A DNA stretch of 63,442 nt, counting the filler, from Craspedostauros australis (Eukaryota), in NCBI GenBank assembly GCA_030167865.1. It is 10 parts of 10 records of this genome, joined end to end, with 100 filler letters (N's around TTAATTAATTAA, not from the genome) between each part and the next. Parts side by side here need not be neighbours in the genome. Positions count along the whole stretch, not along the records: positions 12,084 to 30,205 come from JALAGF010006014.1; 9 more parts are not named here. The stretch is one strand, 5' to 3'. How positions within the stretch are numbered: the stretch's first letter is position 1; each line of letters opens with the position of its first letter. Made by a program: the position numbers and the translations under genes. Positions 16,130 to 34,478 of the stretch are shown one piece after another. The notes below the pieces were generated by a model. That model was not told the origin of the DNA, ran no database searches, and worked only from the letters and a program-made list of their open reading frames with translations.

Positions 16130-17251
16130 CTAATACAGGTCCTTGATCCGACTCCACAGCTCTTCGTTCACAGGACACTCAATGCCAAGTTGCCGTCCCT
16201 TCCTCACTATGAAACCGTTGAGATGGTCGATTTCAGTTTCCCGCACGCTGCTGACATCCTGATTCATGGACGACCGATTGTTGGCGGTATCACGGATCAC
16301 TTCGCCCACAAACTGAAGCAACGACGTCTCCTCCAGACGGTTGTCGATCGCGCCGCAAGCTTTCGCAACGGCCGCAACCTCTTCCGTGACACCCATCAAG
16401 TACTCTGGAAACGACGGCTCCATGAGGAGCTGTCCGTTGGGACACCGCAGGATGGCCGTCAGTGGATTGATGACGCAGTTGGCGGCAAGCTTTTGCCACA
16501 GGAGGATGTCCATGCCGTGTGATGACAACGCCTTGCCGTGCAATCCCGATTGCTGCCACAGAGTGGACATCTCATTCGCGAAATGCATGCTGGTCTCGGT
16601 CTGTTCAATATAGGACTTGCCTTTTCCTGCGTAGACGATGTGCGGGATACCATCGTTGCCTGAGTCATCCGTTGACTTCTGGTACACACCGTTGCTTGTG
16701 CTCGCAAGGAGCAACGAGAAACGCTTGTCACCATCGTCGTCGCCATCGTTGGTTGCATCACGGTCATCGCTCCTGCTACAACTTTTTTCTTTGCTTTCTT
16801 TGGAAATGGTTGCTTCGTCCAAGACTTTTCGCAAATCATCGCGCACAGACAGCGCCCCATTGCACATCAGAACTATCTTGCATTGTGGATGCAGACAGTT
16901 CATGTGCTGTTTCACAGCCATCACGGCATGATTGGCTTTGGCGGTGATGATCACGTTTCGGACGCTCTTCTTCTGCAATGCAGCTTCGCTTTGCTCGTCC
17001 GCTTCTGACGCAACGGCAGCGACTGGAATGAGACTCGCATCTGCGAACCGAGCATCACCTTCCTCAGAATTCGCATGACACAGCGCAATCTTCATCATGC
17101 CCGTTGCGTCGATTTGATGCTTGCGATGGGATCTGAGGATCATCGTCACGGGATAGGACGGATCGAATGATCGGATGGACGACGCCCACAGCATGCCGAT
17201 GGATCCCGATCCCAAAATGTGCAGGGCGGATTTCGCCTTTTGTGTCGCCAT
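16130..17251 (-). CDS. panE: 2-dehydropantoate 2-reductase (ketopantoate reductase, ApbA/PanE family), ~373 aa
   Basis: ILGSGSIG Rossmann motif, ITAK, MCNG, WQKLAANCVINPLTA, NRSSMNQD, TEIDHLNG; likely start MATQKAK at 17251. Confidence 0.93.
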   Translation of the reverse strand: MATQKAKSALHILGSGSIGMLWASSIRSFDPSYPVTMILRSHRKHQIDATGMMKIALCHANSEEGDARFADASLIPVAAVASEADEQSEAALQKKSVRNVIITAKANHAVMAVKQHMNCLHPQCKIVLMCNGALSVRDDLRKVLDEATISKESKEKSCSRSDDRDATNDGDDDGDKRFSLLLASTSNGVYQKSTDDSGNDGIPHIVYAGKGKSYIEQTETSMHFANEMSTLWQQSGLHGKALSSHGMDILLWQKLAANCVINPLTAILRCPNGQLLMEPSFPEYLMGVTEEVAAVAKACGAIDNRLEETSLLQFVGEVIRDTANNRSSMNQDVSSVRETEIDHLNGFIVRKGRQLGIECPVNEELWSRIKDLY

Positions 17252-17783
17252 TGTCGCTGCTATTGCAGTTCCACTGTTGTGTAATGTTGTCGCGAGTATT
17301 AGTAGTCGTATGGTGATGATAATAGTGATGGGTTGGGTGGAGGTTCGTTGTGAGAAAGACTGGTTGGCTTGCGAACATCCATTCATCACGTCATCGGTCG
17401 TGGCTCGATTCTCTCCCCATTCGTGAATGACATCAGCGAAAACGAAACAAAGGAATGATCTTTCGCCAAAAAGACCCAAACCGCCACAACATCCGATCGC
17501 GGCGATACGCAATACATCAATTCATATCACAACAGAGAGGAGACACCACCCTTGACGGAAAGCTATTGATCATCACCATCGTATAATAGCTCGTATGGCG
17601 GTGACATCTGCTGTCCACCACTGTAGGTCGTACTCTGCATTCATGACCCATCACCAAAAACCCACCACAGTACGACAATTTAGTAGTCGTACCATACTCA
17701 ACGACCGTCAACAGGCAAGCACGGCATCACGGAAAGGCACTCCTCCCGTCCAACACGCCATCTGATCTGTCCCTTTCGGCAAC

Positions 17784-19556
17784 ATGGCTAAGCCGATCCC
17801 ACCAAAACGGACAGCACTGTCACGGGGCAAGTCAAGGAAGTCTGTCAGAGTGGTGGCAATCGCTGTGTGGACTGCAATCATCATTCTTCACAATGTACAC
17901 ATATCACTTTCATCACTCCAAAGGACCACGGACGAGTTCCCCAACTCGCCTCCGATACTCAGTAACCAGGCCAATCAGACAGTGCCACCCATCCAATCCA
18001 CTCCTCACACAATGGAGCCAGCGGAACGACTGACAGCATCGGATATCGCTGTCCCTTCGGAATCGCACTCACGCTCGCAACAGCATCATCCAACCGCTTC
18101 TGCTGATACGACTACGTCACAGACTCTAAGTGTCGCAAGATCAAAGAACGAATCGAACGCGCAAATCCCACCGCACGGAAACGATGAACCTGCGGATCGC
18201 CCCTTGCCACGATACCACAAAAGGATGCAAGCAGCGACTGAAGCGTCCGCACAACTGGACGCATACTGTGTGGCAAATCCAATCACTCAGTCCATCCTTC
18301 CGACATTGCTCGATCCTGTATTCGATTGTCTCCACATGAACGCGTCGCAACCCGTGCCAGAATCGCTGGCATACCCCATCACGGATGCCCATGCGCACTT
18401 CAATCACATTCGAGTCAAATTGTACGAGTGGGCGCAGCGTGACGATCACGTTTGTCTCCGTGCCTCAGGCTTCTCGGGACCGTGGATTGAAAATTGGTTC
18501 ATATCGCACTTCGAGTCTATGTACGATAGGAGAATCTCCGGGCGTAATGCTACGACTTCTGCATCTGAGTTGTTTTGCATGTACGAGATCTTCGGCCCAT
18601 ACATCCCTATCTTCATCCCATGGACCGATCATTTCAGAAAATATCGCAGGAGAAATCTACCAGGGTTGTGGTCCACGATCCGATCTGTACTACGTCCAAA
18701 TGTGCCATACATTGTCGTGGTCCAAAATGATGAAGGCCTTCTTGCGCGTGTCGACCACGTCTCAATGCAAGATATCCCCAACATTGTGGTTCTGTCAGCA
18801 GGAGGGTACGGGCATGTTCCCATACCACTGCTCAAGCAGACCGAGACGCCTTTGGTCGATTCATCGTCCTCAATCAACCCAGCCCGCATAACATCCGAGA
18901 ATGATCATCTGCAACACTCTGACTCCCCCCAATACGAGTACAACGACCCGAAAGACAGGAAGTACATTGCTTCCTTCGTTGGCGGCCGTAGAACGGCACC
19001 GCACAACATGAGAATGAACATGATCAACCAGCTGTCGCTGCTCGATGCTGACCTTCAAGCACACGCCGTCAACAACAACCATAGCACCAACAGCCATGAC
19101 ACCCACAGGCTGTTTGCATACTACGGAGGCCCGGAATGGAGAGGCTATATGGCTTCATCCTGCTTCTCCTTCTGCCCCCGTGGCTTCGGACGCACCTCGT
19201 ATCACCTCATGGAAGCACTGCAAATGGGCTTGATCCCAATTCATGTGTATCTGGACGTTCCATGGGTTCCGTATCTGGACTTGATTCAGCGCGAGCAGCT
19301 GGCAATCATCGTGAAGTTTGATGCGGTCGGCAAGTTTGCTCGTGACGAGTTGGTGCCATTGCAGACTTCGTCGCCACTGCAGCATTCCAGCTGGACCTTC
19401 GACAAGATCCGCCAAATAGAAGGACGGATTCTGTCGTATCGGGACAGTCATTTCACGTTTGAGGGTGTGATAAAACAGATTGGCACGTTCATGGTGGACC
19501 CTCGCAAGTCGGACTTGCGGTGCCAGGCTCTGCCGGAATCAGTAAGAGCGGCTTGA
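17784..19556 (+). CDS. Exostosin-like (GT47) type II membrane glycosyltransferase
   Basis: Basic N-tail + one TM segment + S/T/P stem; ASFVGG and SSCFSFCPRGFGRTSYHLMEALQMGLIPI exostosin signature. Confidence 0.85.
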   Translation: MAKPIPPKRTALSRGKSRKSVRVVAIAVWTAIIILHNVHISLSSLQRTTDEFPNSPPILSNQANQTVPPIQSTPHTMEPAERLTASDIAVPSESHSRSQQHHPTASADTTTSQTLSVARSKNESNAQIPPHGNDEPADRPLPRYHKRMQAATEASAQLDAYCVANPITQSILPTLLDPVFDCLHMNASQPVPESLAYPITDAHAHFNHIRVKLYEWAQRDDHVCLRASGFSGPWIENWFISHFESMYDRRISGRNATTSASELFCMYEIFGPYIPIFIPWTDHFRKYRRRNLPGLWSTIRSVLRPNVPYIVVVQNDEGLLARVDHVSMQDIPNIVVLSAGGYGHVPIPLLKQTETPLVDSSSSINPARITSENDHLQHSDSPQYEYNDPKDRKYIASFVGGRRTAPHNMRMNMINQLSLLDADLQAHAVNNNHSTNSHDTHRLFAYYGGPEWRGYMASSCFSFCPRGFGRTSYHLMEALQMGLIPIHVYLDVPWVPYLDLIQREQLAIIVKFDAVGKFARDELVPLQTSSPLQHSSWTFDKIRQIEGRILSYRDSHFTFEGVIKQIGTFMVDPRKSDLRCQALPESVRAA

Positions 19557-19842: not shown

Positions 19843-21243
19843 TCACAGACTGCTAGAGGCTGTATTCTGGGGATATCCCGTCAGGAATGCGTCGGAGCCA
19901 GACGATAACGACGAGTCATCGTACGCATGTGGCACCAATTCACCAGAGTCCCAGTAGTCCTGCCGCAGCATTTCCTCCATCGCACCATGTCCCATGAATG
20001 CAATGAATGGAATTTGCAATGCGCACAGAAGGATGAAGATACCGAACAATGGCTTCATCAATCCTCCACCGTGATCTTCCACGGCATGCGATGCCACTGA
20101 CAGGCAAAATGCCAGAATGACGCAATTCATGCCGACAAAGGCCAACGGGAGGAATCGTCGCGCTAGCGTATTCAGCCGTTTGACATGATTCTTGGGCAAG
20201 CCCGATTGCGGATGGCTGGGTAGCACGAGCACGGCGATTTTGCGATTCTCATCTTCGAAGTTGTCCACCAGTAGCCTGTAGTTCGATTTGGTGCGGACTA
20301 TGGGCGATGCACAAGCAGTGTCAACCTGCTGCGGGATCGCTTCTTCGTTGTTTCCGGACGGGAGCATCAGAGTCTTGGTGACGTCGTGCTGGATATTCAT
20401 GGTGGGAATAGTAGGATAGTAGAAATCGGATTCGTACGCCTGAACCTTCTTCCGGATTCGGATCTTGTAGTCGACATCCAGGTTGTGGCTGTACTCGATT
20501 GTGATGTGATGCAGGACGTCACATCGATCGAAGACGAGGTGGCTGTGGTTGCCGTTGCGTATTTGATCTGTCATGTCGGAGGCCGGTTGTTTGGGGTTGG
20601 CGGCTTGTGATGGTGCCGTTAACGTCCCTCGCTCCATTTGACGGCTTGACAGGATCACGGAGGATACGACATCCGCTTCCACCGTTGTTCCTTCTCGCCA
20701 GTATTCACGCACGAAGATGTCGTCCAAGTACGACAAGTAGGCCAAGAAGGAACCTACCAACGTTGTACAGAAGGCGAAGAGCAACGATAATGCCACGGTC
20801 GTGACCCAATCGTCACCTGCGCCGTCTGCCACGGCTGTTGCTGCTGATGTCGATGTCGAGGCAGATGATGAGGCCGCTGCTGCATCGGCGGTCTGCAGCA
20901 TGCTGATCAACACGATGCACGATGCTGCGAATATCCATCGTCTGCTCAATTGGGAGTGAATGGCTGTGCTTCGCTCGAGTGGCGGTCTGACTGGCTGCTG
21001 TGTTGATTGCTCCACTGGTTGCTCTCGTTGCTGTACATAACCCTGCTGAGACTTGATGTGTTGCTTCGACGACGTCGCCTCCAGTGATGCTTCTCCGATG
21101 GCAGAATTTGCTTGCGCTACGCGTATCTTGCCACTCATCATTCTTGATTCCGATCTCGTCATCGAGCTAGCCATACTTCTGTCTTCCTGTCCCTTCGTTG
21201 TTGCTCTTGTTGCTCTTGTCGCTCTTGGCGTCGAATGCATCAT
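19843..21243 (-). CDS. Uncharacterised multi-pass membrane protein (~4 hydrophobic segments)
   Basis: Long intact ORF; hydrophobic WIFAASCIVLISML, VALSLLFAFCTTLVGSFLAYL, FLPLAFVGMNCVILAFCL, LFGIFILLCALQIPFIAF. Start uncertain. Confidence 0.7.
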   Translation of the reverse strand: MMHSTPRATRATRATTKGQEDRSMASSMTRSESRMMSGKIRVAQANSAIGEASLEATSSKQHIKSQQGYVQQREQPVEQSTQQPVRPPLERSTAIHSQLSRRWIFAASCIVLISMLQTADAAAASSSASTSTSAATAVADGAGDDWVTTVALSLLFAFCTTLVGSFLAYLSYLDDIFVREYWREGTTVEADVVSSVILSSRQMERGTLTAPSQAANPKQPASDMTDQIRNGNHSHLVFDRCDVLHHITIEYSHNLDVDYKIRIRKKVQAYESDFYYPTIPTMNIQHDVTKTLMLPSGNNEEAIPQQVDTACASPIVRTKSNYRLLVDNFEDENRKIAVLVLPSHPQSGLPKNHVKRLNTLARRFLPLAFVGMNCVILAFCLSVASHAVEDHGGGLMKPLFGIFILLCALQIPFIAFMGHGAMEEMLRQDYWDSGELVPHAYDDSSLSSGSDAFLTGYPQNTASSSL

Positions 21244-21640
21244 TGTCGTCAGTGCGATCTCTGTCGGCTTCGTTGGTTTTCCAATTTCCAAGGACGCTCG
21301 GCAGCCTTTCTGTGCACCGATGCAAATCACGAGCAACCACACATCAAAAAGTGAGGTTTCGTTTCGCCATTTCTCCTCTCCGCTTTTGCAACGGACAAGC
21401 ACATGTTTCGATCGCTGAAAAGTGTCAACGGTCTCGCATCGGCGAAAGTCGACCCGTACGATCACTCTTTTGGAATGGTCTGTCCAACATGCCGGGTTAG
21501 TGGAGGAAGAGATAGTCTAACAATCATCATTGTAGAGACATGAAGACAAATGAAAAATGGGACTTGCTGGGGCGTTGCGTTGATGCTCCACTTCTTTATG
21601 TGTTAATACTCGCATCGTCTCCTCACACTTATAATCCCAC

Positions 21641-22756
21641 TCACGACACTGTGGCTTCCTTTCTGGAGTAGGACACATCGTAGTAGCGAACATCTGTCGC
21701 GCGTCCTTGGCTGAGCTGCCACATACGCATCGCTATCGGATTTTCGTTCGACGGCAGCAAGAACGATGCCGAGCGCTGACGGCAGCGCACTTCATCCGTC
21801 TCCGGAAGGTAGGTGTAGAGCGAGGTCGTCTCGATTTCCTTCAGCACCGATGGGGTCTGCCGGGGTTTGTCAACGGGCGTCGCGATCTCTCGCACGACCT
21901 CGCTGCAATCGAACTGATTCTCCGAGATGCGTTCCTGCCGTCGATTCAAGACGATGAGGTCGACTGCCAGCATCGATGGGGCACCGACCGGCGCGAGGAG
22001 GCACGAAAACTTATTGGGCGACGCCATGCTCACATCGACGACGCTGTTGACGCCCATGGCCACCTTCGCGATGGACTTGACGTTGTACTCGCGATCAGCG
22101 ATCGTCTTGCCATCGGCGGTCGACACGAAGCGGCTGTCATACAGCAACGCGTTGCCAATGTCGTTCTTGGCGTTGGTGTACGTCGTGTTACCACCGAACA
22201 GACCCACGCCACAGGGTGCCTGCACGTCCTTGGTGACCGATCGGACCTGCCACGTCCCGGAGAACCATTGGGGATAGAACACGTCCTGGCCTTCCATTCC
22301 GTACGGTGGCGGATTGAGCGCATTGGCGGAGACCCGACTTTCCAGAAGACCAACACCCAAGTTGCTCGATGGTGGTATCTGCGACGATGCCATGATGTTG
22401 GCCATCATGGACGATGGATCGGCGGCATTGGCTGCGGTCGGAGAGGCGAGCTGGGCGCCAATGCCGGCGGCCGTGGCGGAGGCAGCCAGAAATGCACGTC
22501 GATCGTTGAGCTGCTGCGGCGTGCTTGTTTCATCGTGGCAATCAACACCGTCCTCGTTCCGCATGCGCAATCCAAAGCACGAACGGTTTGCATACTCATG
22601 ACGCTGGATCGGCACCTGCTGCGAAATTGAAGGGATTTGAACTGTGGATGTCTTCAAAATTTGTGGAAAGCAGGAACAGGAGCCCGTGAGGAGCAATCCT
22701 GCGGTTGCGAAGAGGGCGACGCGGGGTACCATGCTGGGCACGGATGGCTTGCTCAT
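21641..22756 (-). CDS. Plastid thylakoid-lumen-targeted DUF6816-like protein
   Basis: Signal peptide ending SCSC-FP, transit region, twin-Arg DRRAFLAA...ANA-AD cleavage; core DVFYPQWFSGTW..IADREYN. Confidence 0.75.
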   Translation of the reverse strand: MSKPSVPSMVPRVALFATAGLLLTGSCSCFPQILKTSTVQIPSISQQVPIQRHEYANRSCFGLRMRNEDGVDCHDETSTPQQLNDRRAFLAASATAAGIGAQLASPTAANAADPSSMMANIMASSQIPPSSNLGVGLLESRVSANALNPPPYGMEGQDVFYPQWFSGTWQVRSVTKDVQAPCGVGLFGGNTTYTNAKNDIGNALLYDSRFVSTADGKTIADREYNVKSIAKVAMGVNSVVDVSMASPNKFSCLLAPVGAPSMLAVDLIVLNRRQERISENQFDCSEVVREIATPVDKPRQTPSVLKEIETTSLYTYLPETDEVRCRQRSASFLLPSNENPIAMRMWQLSQGRATDVRYYDVSYSRKEATVS

Positions 22757-23274
22757 TGGCGATGTGAAAACAGTCACTTCGTGCGTAGGTTGTCGTGCTG
22801 ATCGCAAGCAGGTGTCAAGCAAGTGATCGGCATCCGATCTTGTCGGCCCAGCTGCGATTCTCCCTCGTTGATGCAGCCGTCGGTTGATGTGTTGGTGTGT
22901 TTGTCGGCTTCTCCCCATTCACAAAAAGTGAGTGACGACATGATCGTTCTTCGTTTCGTCCGCGAATCTCATGCAGTCGAACAAGTCAGGCGATTTCAAT
23001 TGTAGACAAGGACACGAGAATAGAGATTTCCAGCAGGATGGGTGATTGGGTGCGTACGTGAAACACATAGTCGTACAGGACAGTCAAGTCGAGCAGATTA
23101 ATTGACTATAAAGAGTTCACTGCGTCACACTTACACTTGTGGAACGGTTCCTCCCCCAACCGACCATACATCCTACTCTTGCAGTCTGTGGTATAGCATT
23201 GCTCATCGTCGTACGAGTAGGTTTCTCCATCACATATAGGTCCCAGCATACGACGCGGAAGAGCGCGGCGTAGT

Positions 23275-26018
23275 TTACGAGACTGGATTCTTGTCCTGCG
23301 CTTTCGTGCGTTCGTACAGTTCCAAGCCAATCTTCACGTCATTCTCGTCATACTCCTCTTCGTCATCGTCGTCGTACCTAACATGCCACAATGGTGTGGG
23401 GTCGTATTTGGTAGGCTTCACGTATTTGTCGATGGTTCCGAAGAAGGTTTGCGCTGTTGCCCCTTCCAAGCCATTGGCGTCGTCCGCAGGCGGTATCTCA
23501 AACGTCTTCGCGACGCGCTTGCCGACGTGGTCCATGTGGGAGCTCTTCTTGTTCTTCTTTTGCTTGCTCCTCTTTGTTTTCGACTTTTGTCGCTTCGATG
23601 GCGTTTCCGCCTCGTCCGTCTCTGTCCCTGGGGCGGATTGCGCCGTGCGCTTGTTCTTGCTGCTTGGTTCGATTACTTCAACTTCGGGGATCACCTCGGC
23701 GACAGCTTCGGTGGCACCAACGTTGTCGTTGTCGGCAACAGCTTCGGCAACAGCCTCATCGGCGTCATCTTCATCCATCTGCATCAGATCATCCTTCTCT
23801 TGGATAGTTGCCTTCTGTACCTTCGCCGATCGTTTCTTGAGCTCTTCTTTTGCCGTTTCGCACTGCAGCTCCTTCCCCTCGTGGTGCGGTACTTGAACAG
23901 CTTGCGCCTCTCCTTTCTTGCAGTAGAGGCAAAGAGCCTCTGCAAGCGGAAGAGCACGCCGATTGATGCAACGGAGAATTGGCATCGGTTACGTGCAACG
24001 GTGCATGTCGGCGCATTGCAGTTCGAAGGAGTGCATTGCGAGCAAGTTGCAAAATGACAACATGAAGTTCCAATGACAAGAGTTTTTGTGAGAGAATTTG
24101 TCACAACAACCAATAACCAACAACCAACGATCAACAACGACCAGCAATAAAGCAGAAGCTACACACGCGGACGGATGTATGCATGGAAGCGATGTGTAGT
24201 GGTACTTCATCATTTCGTTCCATTGCATTCCATAGCATTGCTTTCCATCGCATCGCATTCACTGCGACAGCTGTGCATTCCAACAAATCTCAAGCCCATT
24301 CCAGAGATGGACGTACCATATACTTCCAAAACGTCGCTCTCTTCCAGATCGCTGCTGTCATCGAATTTGATAGCGAAGCGATCGTGGTCGATGGTGTCGC
24401 CGAGGATTATCTTCGCGATCGTGCCGCGTTCGATGAACTCGCCATCGGCGTTGGCCTTCTCCAATGGGCGCACGACGCGTTGCCCCACGAGCTGCTCGCG
24501 CAGATCATCCAGTGGCGTGAGCCGGGATTGGACCTCTTCAATGCGTTGATTGAGCAAGGCGCAAGCACCCATCACGACGAGATGGCGGGTTTTGTACTTC
24601 TCGTAGTCGACTCCCGGAATCGGGATGCTTTCGATATTGGCGAACTGGAAGGCGCGTGCTATGTCCTCGGGGATCAGGAGCTTATTGATCATCTCGGAAC
24701 CACCGCCTGTGAGAAAGACAGTCGGTAGCTTCGGCCTCGAAGCCGCGCCAGCCCGGTCCCCGTTTTTTGTGGGTGAGTCGTTGGTTGGTGTGTGTGGCTG
24801 GGCTTCCTTCGCGTCCTCCAAGAACTCGGACACCACCCTGATCACGACGGCCGAAAGCTCCGATAGCACGCTCGACAGCATCTGTTCCCTTGTGGTTCCA
24901 TTCATGAACGCCCGCATCTTTTGGCTGTGGTTGACACCGGCCATGTTGAGCGCCCGGAGACATTCGTCGAACTGTAGGCAAGGGAGGTTGCCGCAGTAGT
25001 CGCTCATGCTGAGCAATCGCGCGCGCACACCCGGTGTGATGCCGCCTCCGATGAACTTGCCTTCCTTGGACACGGCCGTGTACGTCATCGCCGTCCCGGA
25101 ATCAATCACCATGCACGGACCGCTGGATTGGTAAAATGCGCTGAAAACGGCGGCTGCCCTGTCCACGCCCATGGTGTCGTAGCATCCGTTCTCTCTGCTG
25201 AGGAAGTCAACATTGTGCAAGGGAATGATTTTGTGCGGCAGATCTCTGAATATGTACCGGACGCTGTCGAGATGTTCCGTGTTCGTGCTGACAACCACAA
25301 TGGATAGCGTCGGAATTCTGCGCACCGTCACATGCCTCAGGGTGGCCGTCTTCGTCGGTTCATTTTGGCTGTCGCCGAACAGCAGCTTGAACGCATTCGC
25401 GGGGAAGTGACGCGAGAGAACCAAAGACGGCTCGTCCTCCTCATTCTCATTTGTTGGCACAGGGGATCTGTTCGTGCGTACCATGCACACCATGTGCGAA
25501 AACAGTAGCATGGCAGTATTGAGCAGGTTGTTGTACATGTGGGAAGTACAACATATGGTACGGTATGAACGCGAGCGTAAATGCGAGTGTGAGGTTGAGT
25601 GAGCGAGCAAGCACGGTGAAATCGAGTGCAGAAGATGTATGTCTTGTCGTGGGAATAAACCCTTGCATGCCGTACTGTACGTCGGACATAAGATCGTTGA
25701 AGTCAGCACCAAGCACGAGATCAACCACGAACAAGGCACAGGGCACAACGCACAAGAGCAGGCAACTTGAACTCACCTCCAGAAATACGTGGGGTTGAAT
25801 TTGGAGTTGTTCTGCTCCAGCAACGACCAATTGCAGTGCGTGTTGCCGATGGAGACGCACAGCGCGTACTTCTCATGTCGCGACGGCAGATCACTCTTCC
25901 ATCGTCTGATCTCCTCGTTGTCTTCGCCCATCAACGCCGTGTTTGTGTTTGTTTTTGTTTTTGAGGGCATAATGGCAGCCGGAGGCGACTTGTTTGTTGG
26001 TGATGTGTTAGTTGTTGC

Positions 26019-26055
<37 letters not shown>

Positions 26056-26201
26056 GGAGTTGTCGGCGCTTCGGTCGGTTTCGGTTTCGATTTCGACGGT
26101 GTTGTTGGCCCTGTGCCTGATGGTGCCGATGCATCCGCCGATGCGTCCTTGGCACCCGGCGAGGCAAGCTCGCTTGCTGGCACGTCCACGGCTGTCATCA
26201 T
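23275..26201 (-). CDS. coaX: Type III pantothenate kinase (CoaX-like) fused to two Tudor-like domains; exons 26201-25777, 25467-24317, 23939-23275 (746 aa)
   Basis: SIGNT, MGVDRAAA, VIDSGTAMT, FIGGGITPG, FLTGGG motifs. Introns AG|GTGAGT...AACAG and G|GTACGT...TTGCAG keep frame; exons sum to 2241 nt. Confidence 0.85.
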
Positions 26202-27415
26202 GTGAACCAACGCAATCAGCGCTTGCGGACGCAATTGCCTTTGTCTGTTCGTGCTGTGGAGACGATTGCGTCGCTGCCTGCTGTATCACCGGCTTCCTAT
26301 GTTGTTCTCTGGAACAGACTCTTCTGCTCAATATTGTACCGTTCTGGAGTCCGAATCCGACTCTATTCGTGACCAAGCAAGTGCTGCGTACGAGCACTTA
26401 GATGACGATGGTGAAGATACTCACAAGGAAACGCATTGTGATCAACACCGACCAGCGATTTGTTGTCGTGGAAGGACACACGATGTTTGGCGATGATGTT
26501 GGTCGCGGGTTTTGGCGCCATCTTGTCATTGTCGCCGAGCGTCGCTGGCGATTGATCGTAACGGTCAAGACTCTCAATGCGACATTCTCCATGTCGTACT
26601 TCAATTGGGCCAGCAAAACACTGAAAAACAACGAAAACATCACTTTTTCTTTTTTTGGTTGCAAAAATGAAATGTGTTGGAAGATACCAGATCCGACAAG
26701 ACAGAATGAAATCTCCTCCCCCAAGAAAGACAACAGTACTTCCACCACAACCATGCAATACTACTAGTACTGTGGTAGGTCGTAGCAGAGCAGGCCATAA
26801 TAGTTCAATCAAGAGGCGATGCAGCTCCAAGATACGACCTACGCGAGGTTTGAGGACTTCGATGTCAATGTCCTCTTGGCGGCTGGTGGTCAGTGGAATT
26901 GCAAGGAGTCCGATCTTGCATGACGACGGATGTTGCATACAATCTTTGCTGATCTAAACGCACAACGAAACAAGTTGAGATTTATGAACCGGATCGGATG
27001 TTGATGTATTGTTCTCAGTTGCACAGAAAAGGAACAAAGTGGCGCGCGGAATCGCGCCGAATCCAACTCAGAATGAGCAACATCACCACACAAGGCAATA
27101 CCATGACCCACCAGGCGTCAATGATGTCGTGTCGATGCTTGATTCGCACAACACCAATGGCAGAGCGTTTCCCTTCAGATTTATGAATCCTGAGAAACTA
27201 ACACGAATTCGTGTCAACCGATCGCACAAGTTCTGTCCATCTCTTCTGCAAAATCCTGCAGCGACAGAAGACCGACTCGATGCGTGCTCTGCGCACAGAA
27301 GTTGGACGGCTTCAAACGAAGTGCACGCCGACCAACATCCACCCACAATCGTGCTTCGTCACTGGGACGGGTGCCGAAGCTCGGCAAGGTGTGAGATGTG
27401 CACAAGTGGTTTCAA

Positions 27416-27437: not shown

Positions 27438-27684
27438 CAGCACGGCCAAACCAGACAAGTTGAGCTGTGGGAGGCGAGGAGCATGGCACCATGCCAACGA
27501 GCAAGGGAATGGCAAGTGACAACCTGGACCACGCTCCTGCGAGTACGCAGAACACCAAACACCACCATGATGTCTGGAAGGTGCTCATAAAATTCGTTGC
27601 CATCACAAACGAAGGCAGCACAACACCGTACCCGTACAATCGACACCAAATCACCAAGAGTATTCCCTTCAAGAACACGCGAAG

Positions 27685-29306
27685 ATGATGATTCTGAACA
27701 AGGTCACTATCCTCCTGTGGGCAGGGCTCGTCGTTGCAGCATCAGCTGAGATCGCGGCCACCACCACCGCCGCCGCCACCGCCATCGACAAGGGAGCCGT
27801 CAACAAGTTCAAAAAGCTTGAATGGACGGCGAAGACGAAGGCCAAGATCGCCGAAAGGGAAGGACCACCGATCGGTCTGGAACTGCCTGACAGGTGCGAT
27901 ACCGCTAAGCTCTACGCTAACAGTGTGGAGATGCTGGCCCTCGCGAGGTACATCTACACCATCACCGAAATGCGTAAAGCCGTGGGTACTCAGAGGATTG
28001 GCCTCTATGAGCAACTCGGTGGGAGCGGTGGCTCGGGAACCGACTTCAAGCACCTGGCGAAGCTATTGCGTGAGAACTGGAGCTTCATCAGGAAGAAAAC
28101 CGAAGAAGACGAAGAAGATAGATTGCTGGAAATGTTTCGTGAGGATTGGTGCACCAACGTCGACGAAGTCATGACAGACGGGAACTTCAATGGACAAAGA
28201 ATGTTGATGAAAGTAGCCGACGACAAACTTTCAAGTGACGAGTCGCGTGTCCATGCAATCGTTGTCAACAAGCGGAAGAAGCGCGTCGAGGTCGTCTTCC
28301 GTGGAACGTCCAGGTTGTCGGACTGGAGCACGAACCTCAACGCGTTACGCTGGGTAAGTGCAATGGCTTGGCTCGTGCTTTCGCATGAGGCTACTCTGTG
28401 CATGACTGGCAGTCATCTCTCTCTCTCTCCTTTTCAGCCCTTTCAACCCTGTCTACTTGCTCGCTCGCTGACTTCGCCTTGCCTCTCATCCACTCACGCT
28501 GCTCGGCCATTGCGGTTTTATCGTTGCTTCCATTCATCGCCGTCTCTTCTCGCGCATGACGCATCGCATTGTATATGCAGAGGTGGATCAAGAAGCCTGT
28601 CAAAACGACTGACAACGACATCAAATGGGTCAGCCTCCACAAAGGCTTTGCGCGCACCATGCTCGGAGGCACACAATTCTGGAATGGGTACATCGACTTC
28701 ACCAAGTACCAGGATACTCCTTTCGGTAAGATCGTCGCTGATATTGAAAAGTGCTGGGAAGATGGATACTCGCTGTACGTCACAGGGCACTCTCTCGGGG
28801 GAGCCACAGCAACGCTGTTTGGTTTCTTCGCAGCGGCTTGCGTTGGAAAGTTCTCTGAGTCTGCCCCAGTCACCGTGTTCAGCTTCTCCTCTCCGAGACT
28901 TGGGGGCATCGAATTCGGCGATGCTTTCAAGCATCTCGAGGAGAAGGGAAAGCTCCGCCATGCCAGATCCTTCTCGCACAACGACAAGGTCCCTCGTGTT
29001 CCCTACTCGGGTGGAAAATACAAACACGTGGGTATTGAGCTTCGCGCACGGGCGGATGCGCCGATCCTCGTCGATTACCCGATCAGCAGGAAGTGGACCC
29101 AAGAAGGTCCCAATGCGCGCGAGACTATCAACACTATCTTCAAAGCACTCGATTTTCACTCTCCGACGGAGCTCTTGGCAAGACTTCGTCTTTCTCGAAA
29201 CGCCCTCCTCGATACTTCGCTCGAAAAACAGTACAAGCATATGTGGGGTGTGGACGACAAGAAAGAAGGAAGTCTGTTGTCCAAGGTGAGAGACGGCTGG
29301 GTCTGA
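27685..29306 (+). CDS. Secreted class-3 (fungal-type) lipase; exons 27685-28353 and 28581-29306 (464 aa)
   Basis: Signal peptide; VVFRGT..LSDW; intron GTAAGT...ATGCAG (28354-28580); YVTGHSLGGA nucleophile elbow, FSSPRLG, NDKVPRVP, YKHVG. Confidence 0.92.
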
Positions 29307-32300
29307 AAAAAAAAGACACTCCTTGCAGTCCTCGGTGAAGGCAACAATCAACACAAACTCATGGCAAAGAATCCTGGAAGCACGGCCCATGGGAGTATCG
29401 CTGCAGATGGCATGCGAGAAGGACCAGGATGCTAATTTCAACTACAAATACTCTACATACACTAGCTCGTCTCACTTGTTTCATGCATGGCTCCACACGA
29501 ATAGCAACGTCAGCATTGGCACCAACACTGGTCTCTAGTGTCTTTTGGCTTGGGTGGAGGCCAATTTTTTTGGTAACCATTGGTAACAATTGGTAACTAG
29601 TCGTATGAGTCAATTTCGCCGTAGACGCTGGTACATTTTGTACGTCAGTCCCACTCGAAGCGGCCCAAAAAACACCTTTTCTGCCACAAACCTCCTCGGC
29701 AAGTTCATGCCGCTCCATTTGTTTGAGCTCTCCTTTTGTGAGCATTCTCATGTGTGGCATTTAATCACCCTCTCCAACTATGGTGGCGATTGGTTGGGTA
29801 GTGGTCGAGATCTGTTTGTTTCTTTAGAGCATGCACTCGTTGTTCCCATTCACGAATGCCAATCACCGCGATGTATCGTGGCGAATTTCTGTGTGCCCCA
29901 CCGCGTGTTAACACGCGGTGGAAATGATCACAAAACAATGTGATACCAACCGATGTGTTCCTCACATGCCATGATCAGTTCCTTACATCCTGATATCATC
30001 CATTGTGGCTTCGTTCATCGTATTGCATTGTATTATAGTTGATGATATGGTTGATACTTTCTACAATATCGTTTCACTTATACTCCAGAATACTGTACAC
30101 CAGCAACAGTCTTGGCAACAGCAACTTGGATGCATGTATATTGTTGCATCAATCCTGCTTGGGAGAGCAATGATCCCTTGGTTAGCAGCAGCACACAATA
30201 GCAGTNNNNNNNNNNNNNNNNNNNNNNNNNNNNNNNNNNNNNNNNNNNNTTAATTAATTAANNNNNNNNNNNNNNNNNNNNNNNNNNNNNNNNNNNNNNN
30301 NNNNNATCTTCCCCTTTCCGCTGCGTTCACGGACTCCATCGGTTTCGACAGCCACATGCCCGGACTGGTGTCGTCTTCTTCGTCTTGTCGTCTACTTTTT
30401 AGTCGTCCAATTTTATTTCGCAATTCCGCCTGGTGCTATTCCTATGCCAACAAAAGCATACCTATGTCGGGGATCCCGTGTTATTCCTCGCACTAACATT
30501 TTTGCGCCCTCACCTGAACGTTTCCATCACGCATTCTATCAGTTTCGACGTCTGGAGGGACGAACCACTCTCGTCCCCTCCGCCTCAGTGTTTACTTTGT
30601 AGTCGTCCAATTGTTATTTCGAAATTCCGTCTGGTGCTATGTCTATCCGACCAAATCCATACCCATGCAAATTCCTCTCCGTCGTCATGCACCTTCTGGA
30701 GGGCATCGTCAGTGTCATGCACGATTGNNNNNNNNNNNNNNNNNNNNNNNNNNNNNNNNNNNNNNNNNNNNNNNNNNNNNNNNNNNNNNNNNNNNNNNNN
30801 NNNNNNNNNNNNNNNNNNNNNNNNNNNNNNNNNNNNNNNNNNNNNNNNNNNNNNNNNNNNNNNNNNNNNNNNNNNNNNNNNNNNNCTCCGGCAGACTGTG
30901 TGTTGACTTTCAATTGCTCGCGGATCCGTGTGGTGTTGGCCTTTTCGAATTCCACCAATGGAAGGAGATGCACATGGAATTGATACAGATGGTTACGCAG
31001 GTTTGCGGATGACCCGAATGCTGGAGATGGTGCGGGGCATGATTTCCTACCGCTTGCCATCACGAGGCCAAAGACTCAAGCAACAGAATTGACGATCAGC
31101 GACGGCAGTGGACAAATTGCAGCGGCTCCCGAAATATGTGGNNNNNNNNNNNNNNNNNNNNNNNNNNNNNNNNNNNNNNNNNNNNNNNNNNCGGATGCTG
31201 GAGATGGTGCGGGGCATGATTTCCTACCGCTTGGCATCACGAGGCCAACGACTCAAGCAACAGAATTGACGATCAGCGACGGCAGTGGACAAATTGCAGC
31301 GGCTCCCGAAATATGTGGAACCACGGACGCGTTCCTGCACCATTGTAATCGCTGCGATTTTGCGGTTCCATCATGGTTCGAAGATCGACTTGGCGTCGTC
31401 TACTTGTCTCATACTCGACAATAGACTGCATCCCTTGGTCGATGCCCGATCCAGTTTTGTTGTCTTGATCGAAAATGTGGGTGTGAAATTGGCGCACCTC
31501 GGTCGAATCTGATTGGATGGGAATCGTCAATGGTTAAGTGCAAATGTCGTTTGTTGCTCGCAAGGACAAACTACATTTAACAAACGAACAACGAAGAACC
31601 AAAGTATGTCCGAAAATCAAGAAAACAACACGACGAGATCACCAATGATGGATTCGTCTACCAACGATCCAGCGTCCCACACCAACCGACAACAACAGGC
31701 AGGACAGAACGTCTGCCGCAGTGAACTCACATCACACATCACNNNNNNNNNNNNNNNNNNNNNNNNNNNNNNNNNNNNNNNNNNNNNNNNNNNNNNNNNN
31801 NNNNNNNNNNNNNNNNNNNNNNNNNNNNNNNNNNNNNNNNNNNNNNNNNNNNNNNNNNNNNNNNNNNNNNNNNNNNNNNNNNNNNNNNNNNNNNNNNNNN
31901 NNNNNNNNNTAATCATGATACACACGCGATCGTCTCTCACGATGCCAATGCAAATGATGAGAAATTGAGGCTACAACCGATGAGAATAAAAAGAAAAAAT
32001 CAATTGAGAATGAATGGACAGACGGATTGATCTCGCACTCGTTGCTCTCTCTCTCTCTCTTGCACTTGCTCTCTCGTTGTGTTGGTGCTGCGTCACACTC
32101 ACTCATTCGCCAAAATAAAAATCGCAAACAGTTGCACATACATTCTCCAATCACAACCACGTATGCACCAATGAGCGACCGTTGAGCTGTTGCCGCCGAT
32201 CTCCGCACAAACACAGCGCTCATGCTGTTGTGAACAAATAGGCATGTGCTGCTTTGGCTTGTTGAGTGTTGTTGTTGCTGTCTGCTGCATTCTCCTATCT

Positions 32301-32413
32301 GCAATGTCAGCACAACACTCAGTGCTCCCCAACATCGAGATCATTCAGAATCATCCGTGCCTTCCCCCACCGGCATCATCCATCAGCCACCAAGCCACCA
32401 CCGCTATCGCATC

Positions 32414-34378
32414 ATGACTCATCCACGTGAGGATTCAAGCAGCGATCCCAATCCATCCCAATCAAAGGTGCAACGTCGAACAGCAAATGCTGGCACATCC
32501 ATCCATCACCAACCACCTCATGGGCACTACGCATCGTACCAATACTCTGCACCTGTCGGACCGAACCACCATGGCAGCATTCGCAGCCCTCCTCTCCTCA
32601 TGGTTGCAAATCATCATGTCCCTCCCAACATACAACCTCCTTCCTTTTGCATCCCCAGCTACATTGGTGCAGGCGTGGGTGGTCTACCATACTCGACTTT
32701 CCACCCAAACAATAGCATGGCAACTCCCACTTCCAACTACATGGGGCCCAACCGTTTTGGCATTATGCCTTGCAAGCAATGTCTGACCCTGTTCTGCAGT
32801 CACTGCAGTAGGCCACCATTTTGCCCAAACTGTGCATCATCCATCGGCGGAGGTGCACGTCATGCAGGTGTGAATGCCTTTGTGCCACAGGCCAATTCGT
32901 TCTCTGTTGGGACTCGTGGTCATGCTGCTGTGCCCACACGCCCCAAGCGCAAATCATCAGCAAACAGACGCAGGACGCCACATCAACAGGCAGGAGATGA
33001 TGTGCTCGCGGGACGAGATGTCGCTGTGTCCACGGACGAACGCGAGTCAGATTGTGCGAATACGAACAGTGCCGATGACACTGATGTCGAGTACATTCCA
33101 GAAGCAGAGGATGCTGTAAATAGAAAAGGACTACTCACATCTATCTTCAAATCAGCAGGCATTGACATTCGAGCAATTTCGAAATTCCCTGTGAGTGGAT
33201 TCAGAAGCATCCCACCAAGGGGAGCCAAGCATCGCTGGAGTGTCATCAAACGAATCTGGAAAGAGCTGTGTAATGGAACATCCGAGCATGCAATCTTCCC
33301 TGGCACGAAACCCCCACCTCAACTTTGGGAAGCCATGACCTTCGTGCGACATCGCAAACAGCTCCCTCCTNNNNNNNNNNNNNNNNNNNNNNNNNNNNNN
33401 NNNNNNNNNNNNNNNNNNNNTGCTCCTGTGCCCACACGTCCCAAGCGCAAATCATCAGCAAACAGACGCAGGACACCACATCAACAGGCAGGAGATGATG
33501 TGCTTGCGCGACGAGATGTCGCTGTGTCTATGGAAGAGCACGAGCCAGATTGTGCAAGTATGAGCAGTGCCGATGACACCGATGTCGAGTACGTTCCAGA
33601 AGCAGAGGATGCTGTAAATCGAAAAGGACTACTCACATCTATCTTCAAATCAGCAGGCATTGACATTCGAGCAATTACNNNNNNNNNNNNNNNNNNNNNN
33701 NNNNNNNNNNNNNNNNNNNNNNNNNNNNNNNNNNNNNNNNNNNNNNNNNNNATCTGGAAAGAGCTGTGTAATGGAACATCCGAACATGCAATCTTCCCTG
33801 GCACGAAACCCCCACCTCAACTTTGGGAAGCCATGACCTTTGTGCGACATCGCAAACAGCTCCCTCCTGTATTGCTGGAGCAGACTCTCTGTCATTTAGC
33901 CTTCTGGGGGAATAGGGACCTGTCACTGACTGCCCGTGCAGTTTTGGCAATGACCTGTGACTCCAGGCGCTGCACCCGAATCCTGGCTGTGCACTACAGC
34001 AGCCTGTCGAAAGGAGACAAGGCGAAAGTCATGCCGCAACGCCGAACCATGTCTCGTGCAGCACACAGGAGACTGTTGCACGCTGGTGGTGCGATCCTTG
34101 CTGGAGGCCAGTTCCCACACACAGACTACAAGTACCGTGTCAAGGAATCTAGCCTCCAGGGAGTGATCTCATTTCTCACCTCCATGTTCCAGTACCAACC
34201 AGGCATCACAAGGAGCGTGAAGTTGGCTGGTGTTCTGTTCCCAGACCTGCCCATCTTCATTCGCGGATCATCATCTATCGCAGAACTCTTTGCAAAGTAC
34301 AAGAACGCAACAGATGACCCAGTTGGTATGCCTGCCTTCAGGAGTATCCTGACATTGCTCACGCGACGTGGCAAGTGT
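32414..34378 (+). CDS. Partial ORF with a Cys cluster and a C-terminal segment resembling the pre-catalytic region of large DNA transposases (Sola3-like); internal gap duplication; truncated
   Basis: CKQC..FCSHC..FCPNC; RVKESSLQGVISFL...GITRSVKL...LPIFIR...LFAKY...VGMPAFRSIL. No catalytic residues are visible. Confidence 0.35.
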
Positions 34379-34478
34379 NNNNNNNNNNNNNNNNNNNNNN
34401 NNNNNNNNNNNNNNNNNNNNNNTTAATTAATTAANNNNNNNNNNNNNNNNNNNNNNNNNNNNNNNNNNNNNNNNNNNN

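Follow-up and report, generated by a model that had tools for sequence, protein, structure and literature searches.

A predicted diatom gene joining a CoaX-type pantothenate kinase core to two Tudor-like modules, and its possible role at chromatin

Could a single diatom gene join an enzyme from the entry of coenzyme A (CoA) synthesis to a reader of histone marks and, if so, what might its product do? These questions are raised by a locus of Craspedostauros australis at 23275–26201 of a 63,442-nt stretch of DNA (hereafter the window; GenBank assembly GCA_030167865.1, ten parts of ten records joined by filler), within the part taken from JALAGF010006014.1. An earlier note, made from the sequence, had read this locus as a bacterial-type (type III) pantothenate kinase (PanK) fused to tandem Tudor-like domains and a stretch resembling a nuclear localization signal (NLS). 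Our analysis points to one diatom nuclear gene, whose protein would have ∼650–746 aa, according to which start codon is used. In its N-terminal two thirds, this protein is predicted to be a type III pantothenate kinase (CoaX) with the ASKHA fold, a divergent one from the cyanobacterial PRK13331 lineage, and in its C-terminal third to comprise two PTM/DIR17-type Tudor modules (T1 and T2) flanking a charged, NLS-like linker.

Structure and range of the fusion gene

The gene lies on the minus strand, as do all of its features given below, and has three exons and two GT-AG introns. Exon 1 (26201–25777, 425 nt) encodes aa 1–141 plus 2 nt and is followed by intron 1 (25776–25468, 309 nt, phase 2), which begins with GTGAGT and ends with ACAG. 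Exon 2 (25467–24317, 1151 nt; aa 142–526) encodes the remainder of the CoaX (ASKHA) core and then most of T1. Intron 2 (24316–23940, 377 nt, phase 1) runs from GTACGT to CTCTTCCGCTTGCAG, with a pyrimidine tract and a TTGCAG end, and exon 3 (23939–23275, 665 nt including the stop; aa 526–746) completes T1 with its C-terminal helix and continues through the acidic/basic linker into T2. A script run on the sequence gave a spliced coding sequence of 2241 nt, corresponding to 746 aa plus stop, with no internal stops. This model, together with the colinearity described next, upholds the earlier proposal that three open reading frames (ORFs) are joined in frame, and the peptides quoted at that time (LVGQRVVR...FAIKFDDSSDLEESDVLEVY|EALCLY, PSKRQKSKTKRSKQKKNKK and HVGKRVAKTF...LWHVRYDDDDEEEYDENDVKIGLELY) were all found in the translations. 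G+C content is 55.9% in the exons versus 49.8% and 47.2% in introns 1 and 2, respectively. Intron 2 also contains simple repeats, with CAACAAC occurring five times at 24104–24138 and a 15-nt unit at 24221–24260.

Comparison with homologues lends the spliced model strong support. The spliced protein is colinear over aa 98–734 with P0001, a 595-aa homologue encoded by a single ORF on a 1898-nt contig (295 bits, E = 1e-94, 212 of 642 positions identical). Both junctions are crossed unbroken in this alignment, FWR|SP matching FWRTP and EVY|EAL matching EVYDAL. Read without splicing, the exon 1 frame meets a stop right at the donor (TGG AGG TGA), and the exon 2 frame continues into non-conserved sequence and then a stop. 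In the structural model of P0001, the first Tudor module ends in a helix (H405–418) whose residues align with the start of exon 3. Because the start of exon 3 supplies this helix, removal of intron 2 appears to be needed for a complete T1. The same fusion is found as single ORFs in other diatom records labeled as transcripts, namely P0015 and P0169 (both 'type:complete'), P0167 and P0168.

The N-terminal ∼97 aa consist of low-complexity Ala/Thr/Pro/Ser sequence, and M1, M78 and M91 are possible start codons. Homologues begin close to the GNT motif of the core (∼20–60 aa upstream of it in the family alignment), which favors M78 or M91. A poly-Ala run in the low-complexity part of exon 1 corresponds to a (TGC)12 repeat at 26016–26051, the length of which likely differs between strains.

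How widely is the fusion distributed? A search of representative proteins, with a query that included most of T1, returned 3425 matches at E ≤ 1e-3, 180 at E ≤ 1e-10 and 44 at E ≤ 1e-30. About 150 clusters outscored the first cyanobacterial protein, and the best relatives are 37% identical to the window protein. We then have 155 sequences (154 database proteins plus the window protein), a set biased toward T1 by the query and including many fragmentary database proteins, in which 178 modules were located after the core in 132 sequences, two modules in 46 and one in 86. Twenty clusters were looked up, and ten had a name or could be resolved. Every organism-named member was a diatom (Nitzschia, Cylindrotheca, Mayamaea, Epithemia, Stauroneis, Proboscia, Pseudo-nitzschia and two Bacillariaceae metagenome-assembled genomes); the tenth resolvable cluster, P0154, gave a product name only. 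NCBI labels the diatom family members 'hypothetical protein'. A search for longer homologous proteins with exon 2 found none, and a literature search that left aside subscription journals and supplements found nothing on a fusion of type III PanK with Tudor domains or on type III PanK in diatoms or other eukaryotes. CoaX and Tudor domains are each known; their combination in one protein appears to be undescribed, as do the eukaryotic and probably nuclear setting of that protein and the cyanobacterial origin of its core.

Tudor-like modules and the linker between them

T1 is encoded at 23917–24500, split by intron 2 (aa 465–533), and T2 at 23311–23535 (aa 661–735), the latter with four strands and a C-terminal helix. 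Both were delineated with a hidden Markov model seeded on four modules, from the window protein and P0001, and iterated twice; T1 matched it at E = 2e-19. PF21743, the PTM/DIR17-like Tudor family, matches P0001 in two stretches (52.6 bits, E = 4e-14), and 12 of 13 T2 modules match it at E ≤ 0.01 (best, 2.7e-12). These results bear out the claim of two related C-terminal Tudor-like modules and, at the level of the family, that of a PTM/DIR17-type pattern. The description of the modules as tandem holds in that there are two of them; they do not form a packed tandem, being ∼127 aa apart, with a long predicted helix and a disordered stretch in between.

In T2 of the window protein, strands 1 and 2 are separated by a long insertion. 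Its AlphaFold2 model (92 aa, 46-row alignment) is a small beta-barrel with a helix and has a mean predicted local distance difference test score (pLDDT) of 91.8 and a predicted template modeling score (pTM) of 0.79. When this model was compared with 48,161 chains using VIA-align, the top match was the RDM15 Tudor domain bound to H3K4me1 (7de9_A; Z = 5.5, root-mean-square deviation 2.5, 54 of 58 residues). The next matches, at Z = 4.5–4.9, include the LBR, TbTudor, SMN, ERCC6L2 and PHF19 Tudors, PWWP domains, chromodomains and unrelated small barrels. Profile searches pointed to the same relative. A profile of the 13 T2 modules had 7de9_A as its sole match in the PDB (E = 3.1e-4), and the whole-family profile matched 7de9_A over T2 (E = 0.002) and the SETDB1 (E = 0.005) and Eggless Tudors over T1 (E = 0.005–0.03). 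The single T2 sequence gave only insignificant matches to ZCCHC8 in the PDB (E = 0.26).

Residues of RDM15 that contact the histone are represented in T2. In PMC8184781, W616, Y623, Y641, D643, D645 and E647 of RDM15 are assigned to the methyl-lysine cage, to coordination of the monomethyl-ammonium group and to H3R2 binding. With HMMER, and with RDM15 numbering anchored on its YDDGDQE motif, these six align with F, Y/F, Y, D, D and E of the T2 family. Window T2 has F, F, Y, D, D and E, so that all six are present. Across the family, an aromatic or acidic residue, as appropriate, stands at every one of the six positions in 45 of 46 T2 modules; the same holds for 25 of 46 T1 modules and for 50 of the 86 modules that occur singly. 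Because the six equivalents are present, we predict that T2 very probably functions as an RDM15-type reader of methyl-lysine, and its signature suggests that organisms other than plants also read H3K4me1-like marks. The two proteins also differ. T2 keeps Y-x-D-x-D-x-E and both upstream cage aromatics of the Arabidopsis RDM15 (PDS5C) Tudor (7de9), yet identity is only ∼20%, Phe stands in place of Trp616, and window T2 has a longer beta1–beta2 loop and a C-terminal helix. The host proteins are unlike as well, RDM15 being a cohesin cofactor and the diatom protein a homologue of a metabolic enzyme.

The linker separating T1 and T2 (∼127 aa in the window protein, median 97 aa over 46 two-module proteins) contains 18% K+R and 21% D+E. 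Its basic stretch, PSKRQKSKTKRSKQKKNKK, is encoded at 23548–23604 (aa 638–656) and resembles a classical NLS. Three matches to K[KR]x[KR] occur in the window linker, at least one of them in KRQKSKTKRSKQKKNKK (aa 640–656). This motif is present in 37 of 46 linkers versus 13 of 46 N-terminal/CoaX parts, and per residue it is ∼12 times denser in the linkers. The NLS-like stretch described in the earlier note thus holds up, and nuclear import of the protein is plausible. In the P0001 model, the linker forms a long helix followed by a disordered stretch (pLDDT < 50 at 493–521).

A plastid-targeted enzyme was also considered. Diatom plastid proteins carry a bipartite plastid signal, and inspection of the window protein N-terminus by eye, with no predictor, revealed no hydrophobic start resembling a signal peptide. 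For this reason plastid targeting is disfavored, and it was rejected as the leading interpretation.

The CoaX core and its cyanobacterial affinity

The CoaX-like core (24543–25910, interrupted by intron 1; ∼aa 98–450) is identified by family profiles, by the P0001 alignment and by its motifs. Profiles were scored on exon 2 only, which corresponds to positions 62–174 of 205. On this basis PF03309 (Pan_kinase) was passed clearly (E = 2.5e-16, 60.6 bits, cut-off 24.7) and TIGR00671 at the borderline (61.0 bits, cut-off 58.2). With phmmer, exon 2 matched five type III PanK sequences of solved structure, and a 60-sequence family profile matched eight such sequences in the PDB (E = 3.5e-17 to 1e-6). 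The fold was compared using P0001, which is 33% identical to the window protein, rather than the window protein itself. Its full-length AlphaFold model (pLDDT 90.3, pTM 0.78) had type III PanKs as all of its top Foldseek matches (E = 1e-12, target-normalized template modeling score 0.72–0.79), CoaX of Mycobacterium tuberculosis included. Taken with the Pfam and TIGR scores, these matches confirm the CoaX core that the earlier note had recognized.

Several motifs of the family are retained. The PHOSPHATE-1 strand lies in exon 1 (ALCVSIGNT; the window protein reads V-S-I-G-N-T-H-C-N-W) and is preceded by a conserved W-x(4)-P-S-x-H. The substrate-binding motif is GVDR (D244, R245), whose Asp we take to be the catalytic base; PHOSPHATE-2 is DSGTA (D264-G-T-A) and ADENOSINE is TGG (395–397). 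Residues of GxDR, DxGTA and TGG are present in 97–100% of 31 diatom members, except for the Thr of DxGTA (84%) and that of TGG (81%).

Which branch of type III PanK does the core resemble? Among 28 NCBIfam models for these kinases, NF009871 (PRK13331) gave the highest score both with the window protein and with the five homologues or fragments tested: 79.3 bits for window exon 2, 79–94 bits for the diatom homologues and 52–94 bits over the whole group. The representative search also found P0154, a 255-aa protein that does belong to PRK13331 (314 bits, cut-off 251). An initial scan of genome contigs with P0154 alone confirmed no relatives, and a genome scan seeded with P0154 returned 242. We used the best 80 of these 242 loci as a cyanobacterial-type comparison set; 76 are cyanobacterial by title, and the other four are three entries named 'uncultured bacterium' and one 'Thiotrichales' metagenome-assembled genome. 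In this set, 66 columns are ≥90% conserved, and 29 of them are kept in ≥80% of the 31 diatom members. The kept columns include G-N, a Tyr, G-x-D-R, D-x-G-T-A-x-T, G-G-x-I-x-P-G, a Thr and T-G-G, and all of these motif residues are present in the window protein. The diatom family and the cyanobacterial-type loci also have in common a motif x-I-G-N-S-x-x-H-W that lacks the canonical Asp. The 'bacterial-type' label of the earlier note thus stands as to type III and can be narrowed to the cyanobacterial PRK13331 type, and we infer an endosymbiotic origin of the core.

Resemblance to cyanobacterial CoaX (NF009871) accordingly lies in the best subfamily score, the Asp-less PHOSPHATE-1 and the GxDR, DxGTA, GGxIxPG and TGG motifs. 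The differences are considerable: 37 of the 66 near-invariant columns are changed in the diatom proteins, and the diatom core is longer (∼350 versus ∼250 aa), with large insertions. Relative to the bacterial CoaX proteins examined, the diatom protein adds introns, the C-terminal Tudor modules and an N-terminal extension with a conserved Trp. This Trp belongs to a Pro/His stretch (W-P-x-x-x-P-H) before PHOSPHATE-1, located around 25910–25880 in the window and at columns 40–50 of the alignment; the cyanobacterial protein in this alignment lacks the extension, which is diatom-specific there. One PRK13331-type locus belongs to Calothrix rhizosoleniae, presumably, from its name, a symbiont of the diatom Rhizosolenia. 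Its protein is 47% identical to P0154, no closer than those of other cyanobacteria.

Weighing possible functions

We consider it fairly probable that the gene encodes a nuclear CoaX-type kinase, probably dimeric, that is docked by T2 on an H3K4me1-like mark. The basic linker would take the protein into the nucleus, where T2 would dock it on a histone lysine mark of low methylation, as RDM15 docks on H3K4me1. T1 could dock likewise in most relatives, and much less so in the window protein. The CoaX core would bind ATP and pantothenate, most likely phosphorylate the pantothenate and, like bacterial CoaX, act as a dimer. In that case marked chromatin would be the site of the first step in CoA synthesis, or of a read-out of how much pantothenate is supplied. 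Localization, histone binding, catalysis and dimerization are all predictions here. The conserved RDM15-type reader residues of T2 add strength to the earlier suggestion of a nuclear, chromatin-tethered enzyme or sensor.

A broader scenario is more tentative, and we rate it as possible rather than likely. CoaX of the cyanobacterial plastid ancestor may have moved to the nucleus and come to be tethered by an H3K4me1-type Tudor, serving either to produce 4'-phosphopantothenate on site or to sense vitamin B5, and so coupling the supply of CoA precursors to histone acylation or transcription. Histone acylation draws its acyl groups from acetyl-CoA and other acyl-CoAs, and in animals and yeast some acetyl-CoA-producing enzymes act in the nucleus. 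If true, this would be a direct fusion of a metabolic enzyme with a histone reader at the entry to the CoA pathway, of which the literature search found no example. It would connect vitamin B5/CoA metabolism to chromatin in a new way, at the first CoA step, in a group of ecologically dominant algae. To our knowledge, CoaX-type kinases are essentially bacterial, and the diatom family provides a clear case of one under purifying selection in a eukaryotic nuclear genome.

A number of observations weigh against a nuclear, T2-docked kinase. On the reader side, T2 of the window protein (exon 3) falls below the PF21743 cut-off (13.4 bits, E = 0.068, versus 27.2), and taken alone it has no match to PF21743 at E ≤ 0.01, the sole failure among the 13 T2 modules; the PTM/DIR17-type pattern seen in the family hence falls short in this member. 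The Tudor fold predicted earlier gains from the confident T2 model and its top match to RDM15. But a Foldseek search of the PDB with that model returned nothing at E ≤ 1e-3 (the best rows are Tudors, at E = 0.3), a Z of 5.5 is within the range that VIA-align itself calls a common arrangement, and the structural scores are modest. Window T1, which reads L, E, F, D, D and E at the six contact positions, has lost two of three cage aromatics and looks degenerate. As a sign of nuclear import, an NLS-like motif is weak when it lies in a disordered linker rich in lysine.

Other points concern the gene model and the core. Both splices in C. australis rest on homology, and two public records cover exon 3 in unspliced or separate form: a 972-nt contig that runs from exon 3 across the acceptor and 134 nt into intron 2, and a 169-aa ORF (P0173) on a 993-nt contig, starting at an internal Met of exon 3. 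As for the core, the Asp of the canonical D-x-G-N-T of PHOSPHATE-1 is replaced by Ser117 in the window protein. The site is non-acidic in 34 of 35 family members (V in 11, S in 9, I in 7, N, L and G in 2 each and M in 1, with Asp in 1), a count obtained from 40 regular-expression matches after removal of two canonical bacterial proteins, P0154 and two spurious matches. The window protein also scores below the NF009871 equivalog cut-off of 251 bits and is not an equivalog-level member. Given the replaced Asp and a score of 79 bits, far under 251, kinase activity of the core is not assured.

RNA evidence for this locus is sparse. None of the public sequencing runs containing it is recorded as RNA from C. 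australis. The sole such run, X1, was marked 'RNA?' by guess and holds 0.32 of the locus words. Its contigs cover only 23102–24073 (the 972-nt contig above) and 24116–24316, leaving exons 1 and 2 uncovered and giving zero joints; missing coverage was counted as evidence neither way, and the gap at 24074–24115 coincides with the CAACAAC repeat. If X1 is RNA, an intron-retaining or exon-3-only RNA may exist, and may be stable, as the unspliced contig and the 169-aa ORF record would allow. Rfam gave no match in 22900–26500 at E ≤ 1, and therefore no known intronic RNA accounts for the contig in intron 2. The longer contig extends from the 3' untranslated region, with a 3' end at 23102 that is 173 nt beyond the stop codon, through exon 3 into intron 2, and the shorter one terminates exactly on the first base of intron 2 (24316). 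A search for other, longer host proteins with T2 returned only the 169-aa ORF of the window itself. An antisense ORF at 23221–24054 on the plus strand had no Pfam match.

Three alternatives to a T2-docked nuclear kinase deserve attention. The X1 contig and the 169-aa ORF would be explained if exon 3 were a separate unit, encoding a small protein with an NLS and a Tudor module, and if the kinase gene ended in or near intron 2. The nearest Atlas cluster, made up of ∼206-aa diatom proteins with PF21743, would fit this idea, although its score of 0.76 is under the trust level and makes it a lead only. We regard such an artifact of the gene model as very improbable: left unspliced, T1 would lack its conserved C-terminal helix and the frame would run into non-conserved sequence and a stop, the P0001 alignment is unbroken across the junction, and 46 family members have both modules in one protein, some of their ORFs being labeled complete transcripts. 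Moreover, X1 is RNA by guess only, and a short isoform could coexist with a full-length mRNA. Somewhat less improbable, but still clearly unlikely, is a cytosolic role, in which the protein would be a second, CoA-insensitive pantothenate kinase, the Tudors would bind methylated non-histone partners or oligomerize, and the basic linker would be a flexible spacer. Methyl-arginine on proteins other than histones is also read by Tudor/SH3-like barrels, the structural matches include the Tudors of Papi, Qin and SMN, and both the modest structural scores and the indirect case for nuclear import leave room for this explanation. It is at odds with the fact that the sole solved sequence relative of T2 is an H3K4me1 reader, with the six contact residues kept in 45 of 46 T2 modules, with the weak matches of family T1 to the histone-binding Tudors of SETDB1 and Eggless (E = 0.005–0.03) and with the enrichment of NLS-like basic motifs in the linker.

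The most serious of the three, though in our estimate an unlikely one, is that the core is a pseudokinase. It would bind pantothenate, with or without ATP, and not phosphorylate it, making the protein a chromatin factor tuned by vitamin B5 status. Diatoms are expected to have a type II PanK, the eukaryotic kind, for the bulk of their CoA synthesis. The missing PHOSPHATE-1 Asp and the scores far under equivalog cut-offs fit a sensor, and this Asp is given as an ATP-binding residue in PMC11315101. There is also a precedent, in that CoaX of M. tuberculosis (PDB 9b78, 9cku) is described in PMC11626117 as a pantothenate-binding pseudokinase that regulates depupylation. That protein shares with the diatom family the CoaX fold and a substituted PHOSPHATE-1 region and is among the sequence and structural matches; its regulatory use of the fold goes through a protein partner, the depupylase Dop, whereas the diatom protein has fused Tudor modules. 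What argues against a loss of activity is that the Asp is absent from cyanobacterial-type proteins too. An Asp-less x-I-G-N-S-R-L-H-W was found in 80 of 80 such loci (M in 32, A in 19, V in 10, S in 9, I and T in 5 each), bearing in mind that one of the two scan patterns required V, M or I at this site and that the 33 A/S/T loci entered via the other pattern. Since all 80 lack it, the loss of the Asp is, on these sequences, a shared trait of the cyanobacterial lineage and not diatom-specific decay. PMC7133116 names CoaX as the enzyme that carries out the pantothenate kinase step of the CoA pathway in Synechocystis. The M. tuberculosis protein is inactive, according to PMC11626117, through Arg and His at two Gly positions (R8 and H229, in the GNT and GG motifs); of these sites only the Asp is changed in the window protein, which keeps the Gly of both motifs. 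In the diatom family, the GxDR Asp and the DxGTA motif count as invariant, at the percentages given above. With its motifs kept, the Asp loss lineage-wide and the Gly changes of M. tuberculosis absent, we think it likelier that the core catalyzes phosphorylation of pantothenate than that it does not.

Regulatory associations of CoaX have other parallels. The BirA–CoaX bifunctional protein (NF009862) and the 'Baf family transcriptional activator' (2nrh), both of which were matched here, have CoaX joined to, or annotated with, a DNA or transcription function; we take the link of 2nrh to Baf function from its annotation. In contrast to the diatom protein, these are bacterial and without histone readers.

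Genes around the locus were compared with Pfam. ORFs at 19846–21516 (-), 26366–26953 (-), 27571–29286 (+) and 32234–34423 (+) had no match at E ≤ 1e-3. The ORF at 21644–22918 (-) matches DUF6816 (E = 3e-26), and that at 17766–19553 (+) has an exostosin GT47 domain (E = 7.6e-9). An ORF at 16133–17521 (-) encodes a putative PanE/ApbA ketopantoate reductase (PF08546, E = 2.8e-34; PF02558, E = 5e-10). This candidate gene of pantothenate synthesis is on the same strand as the pantothenate-kinase-like gene, ∼6 kb downstream and three genes away.

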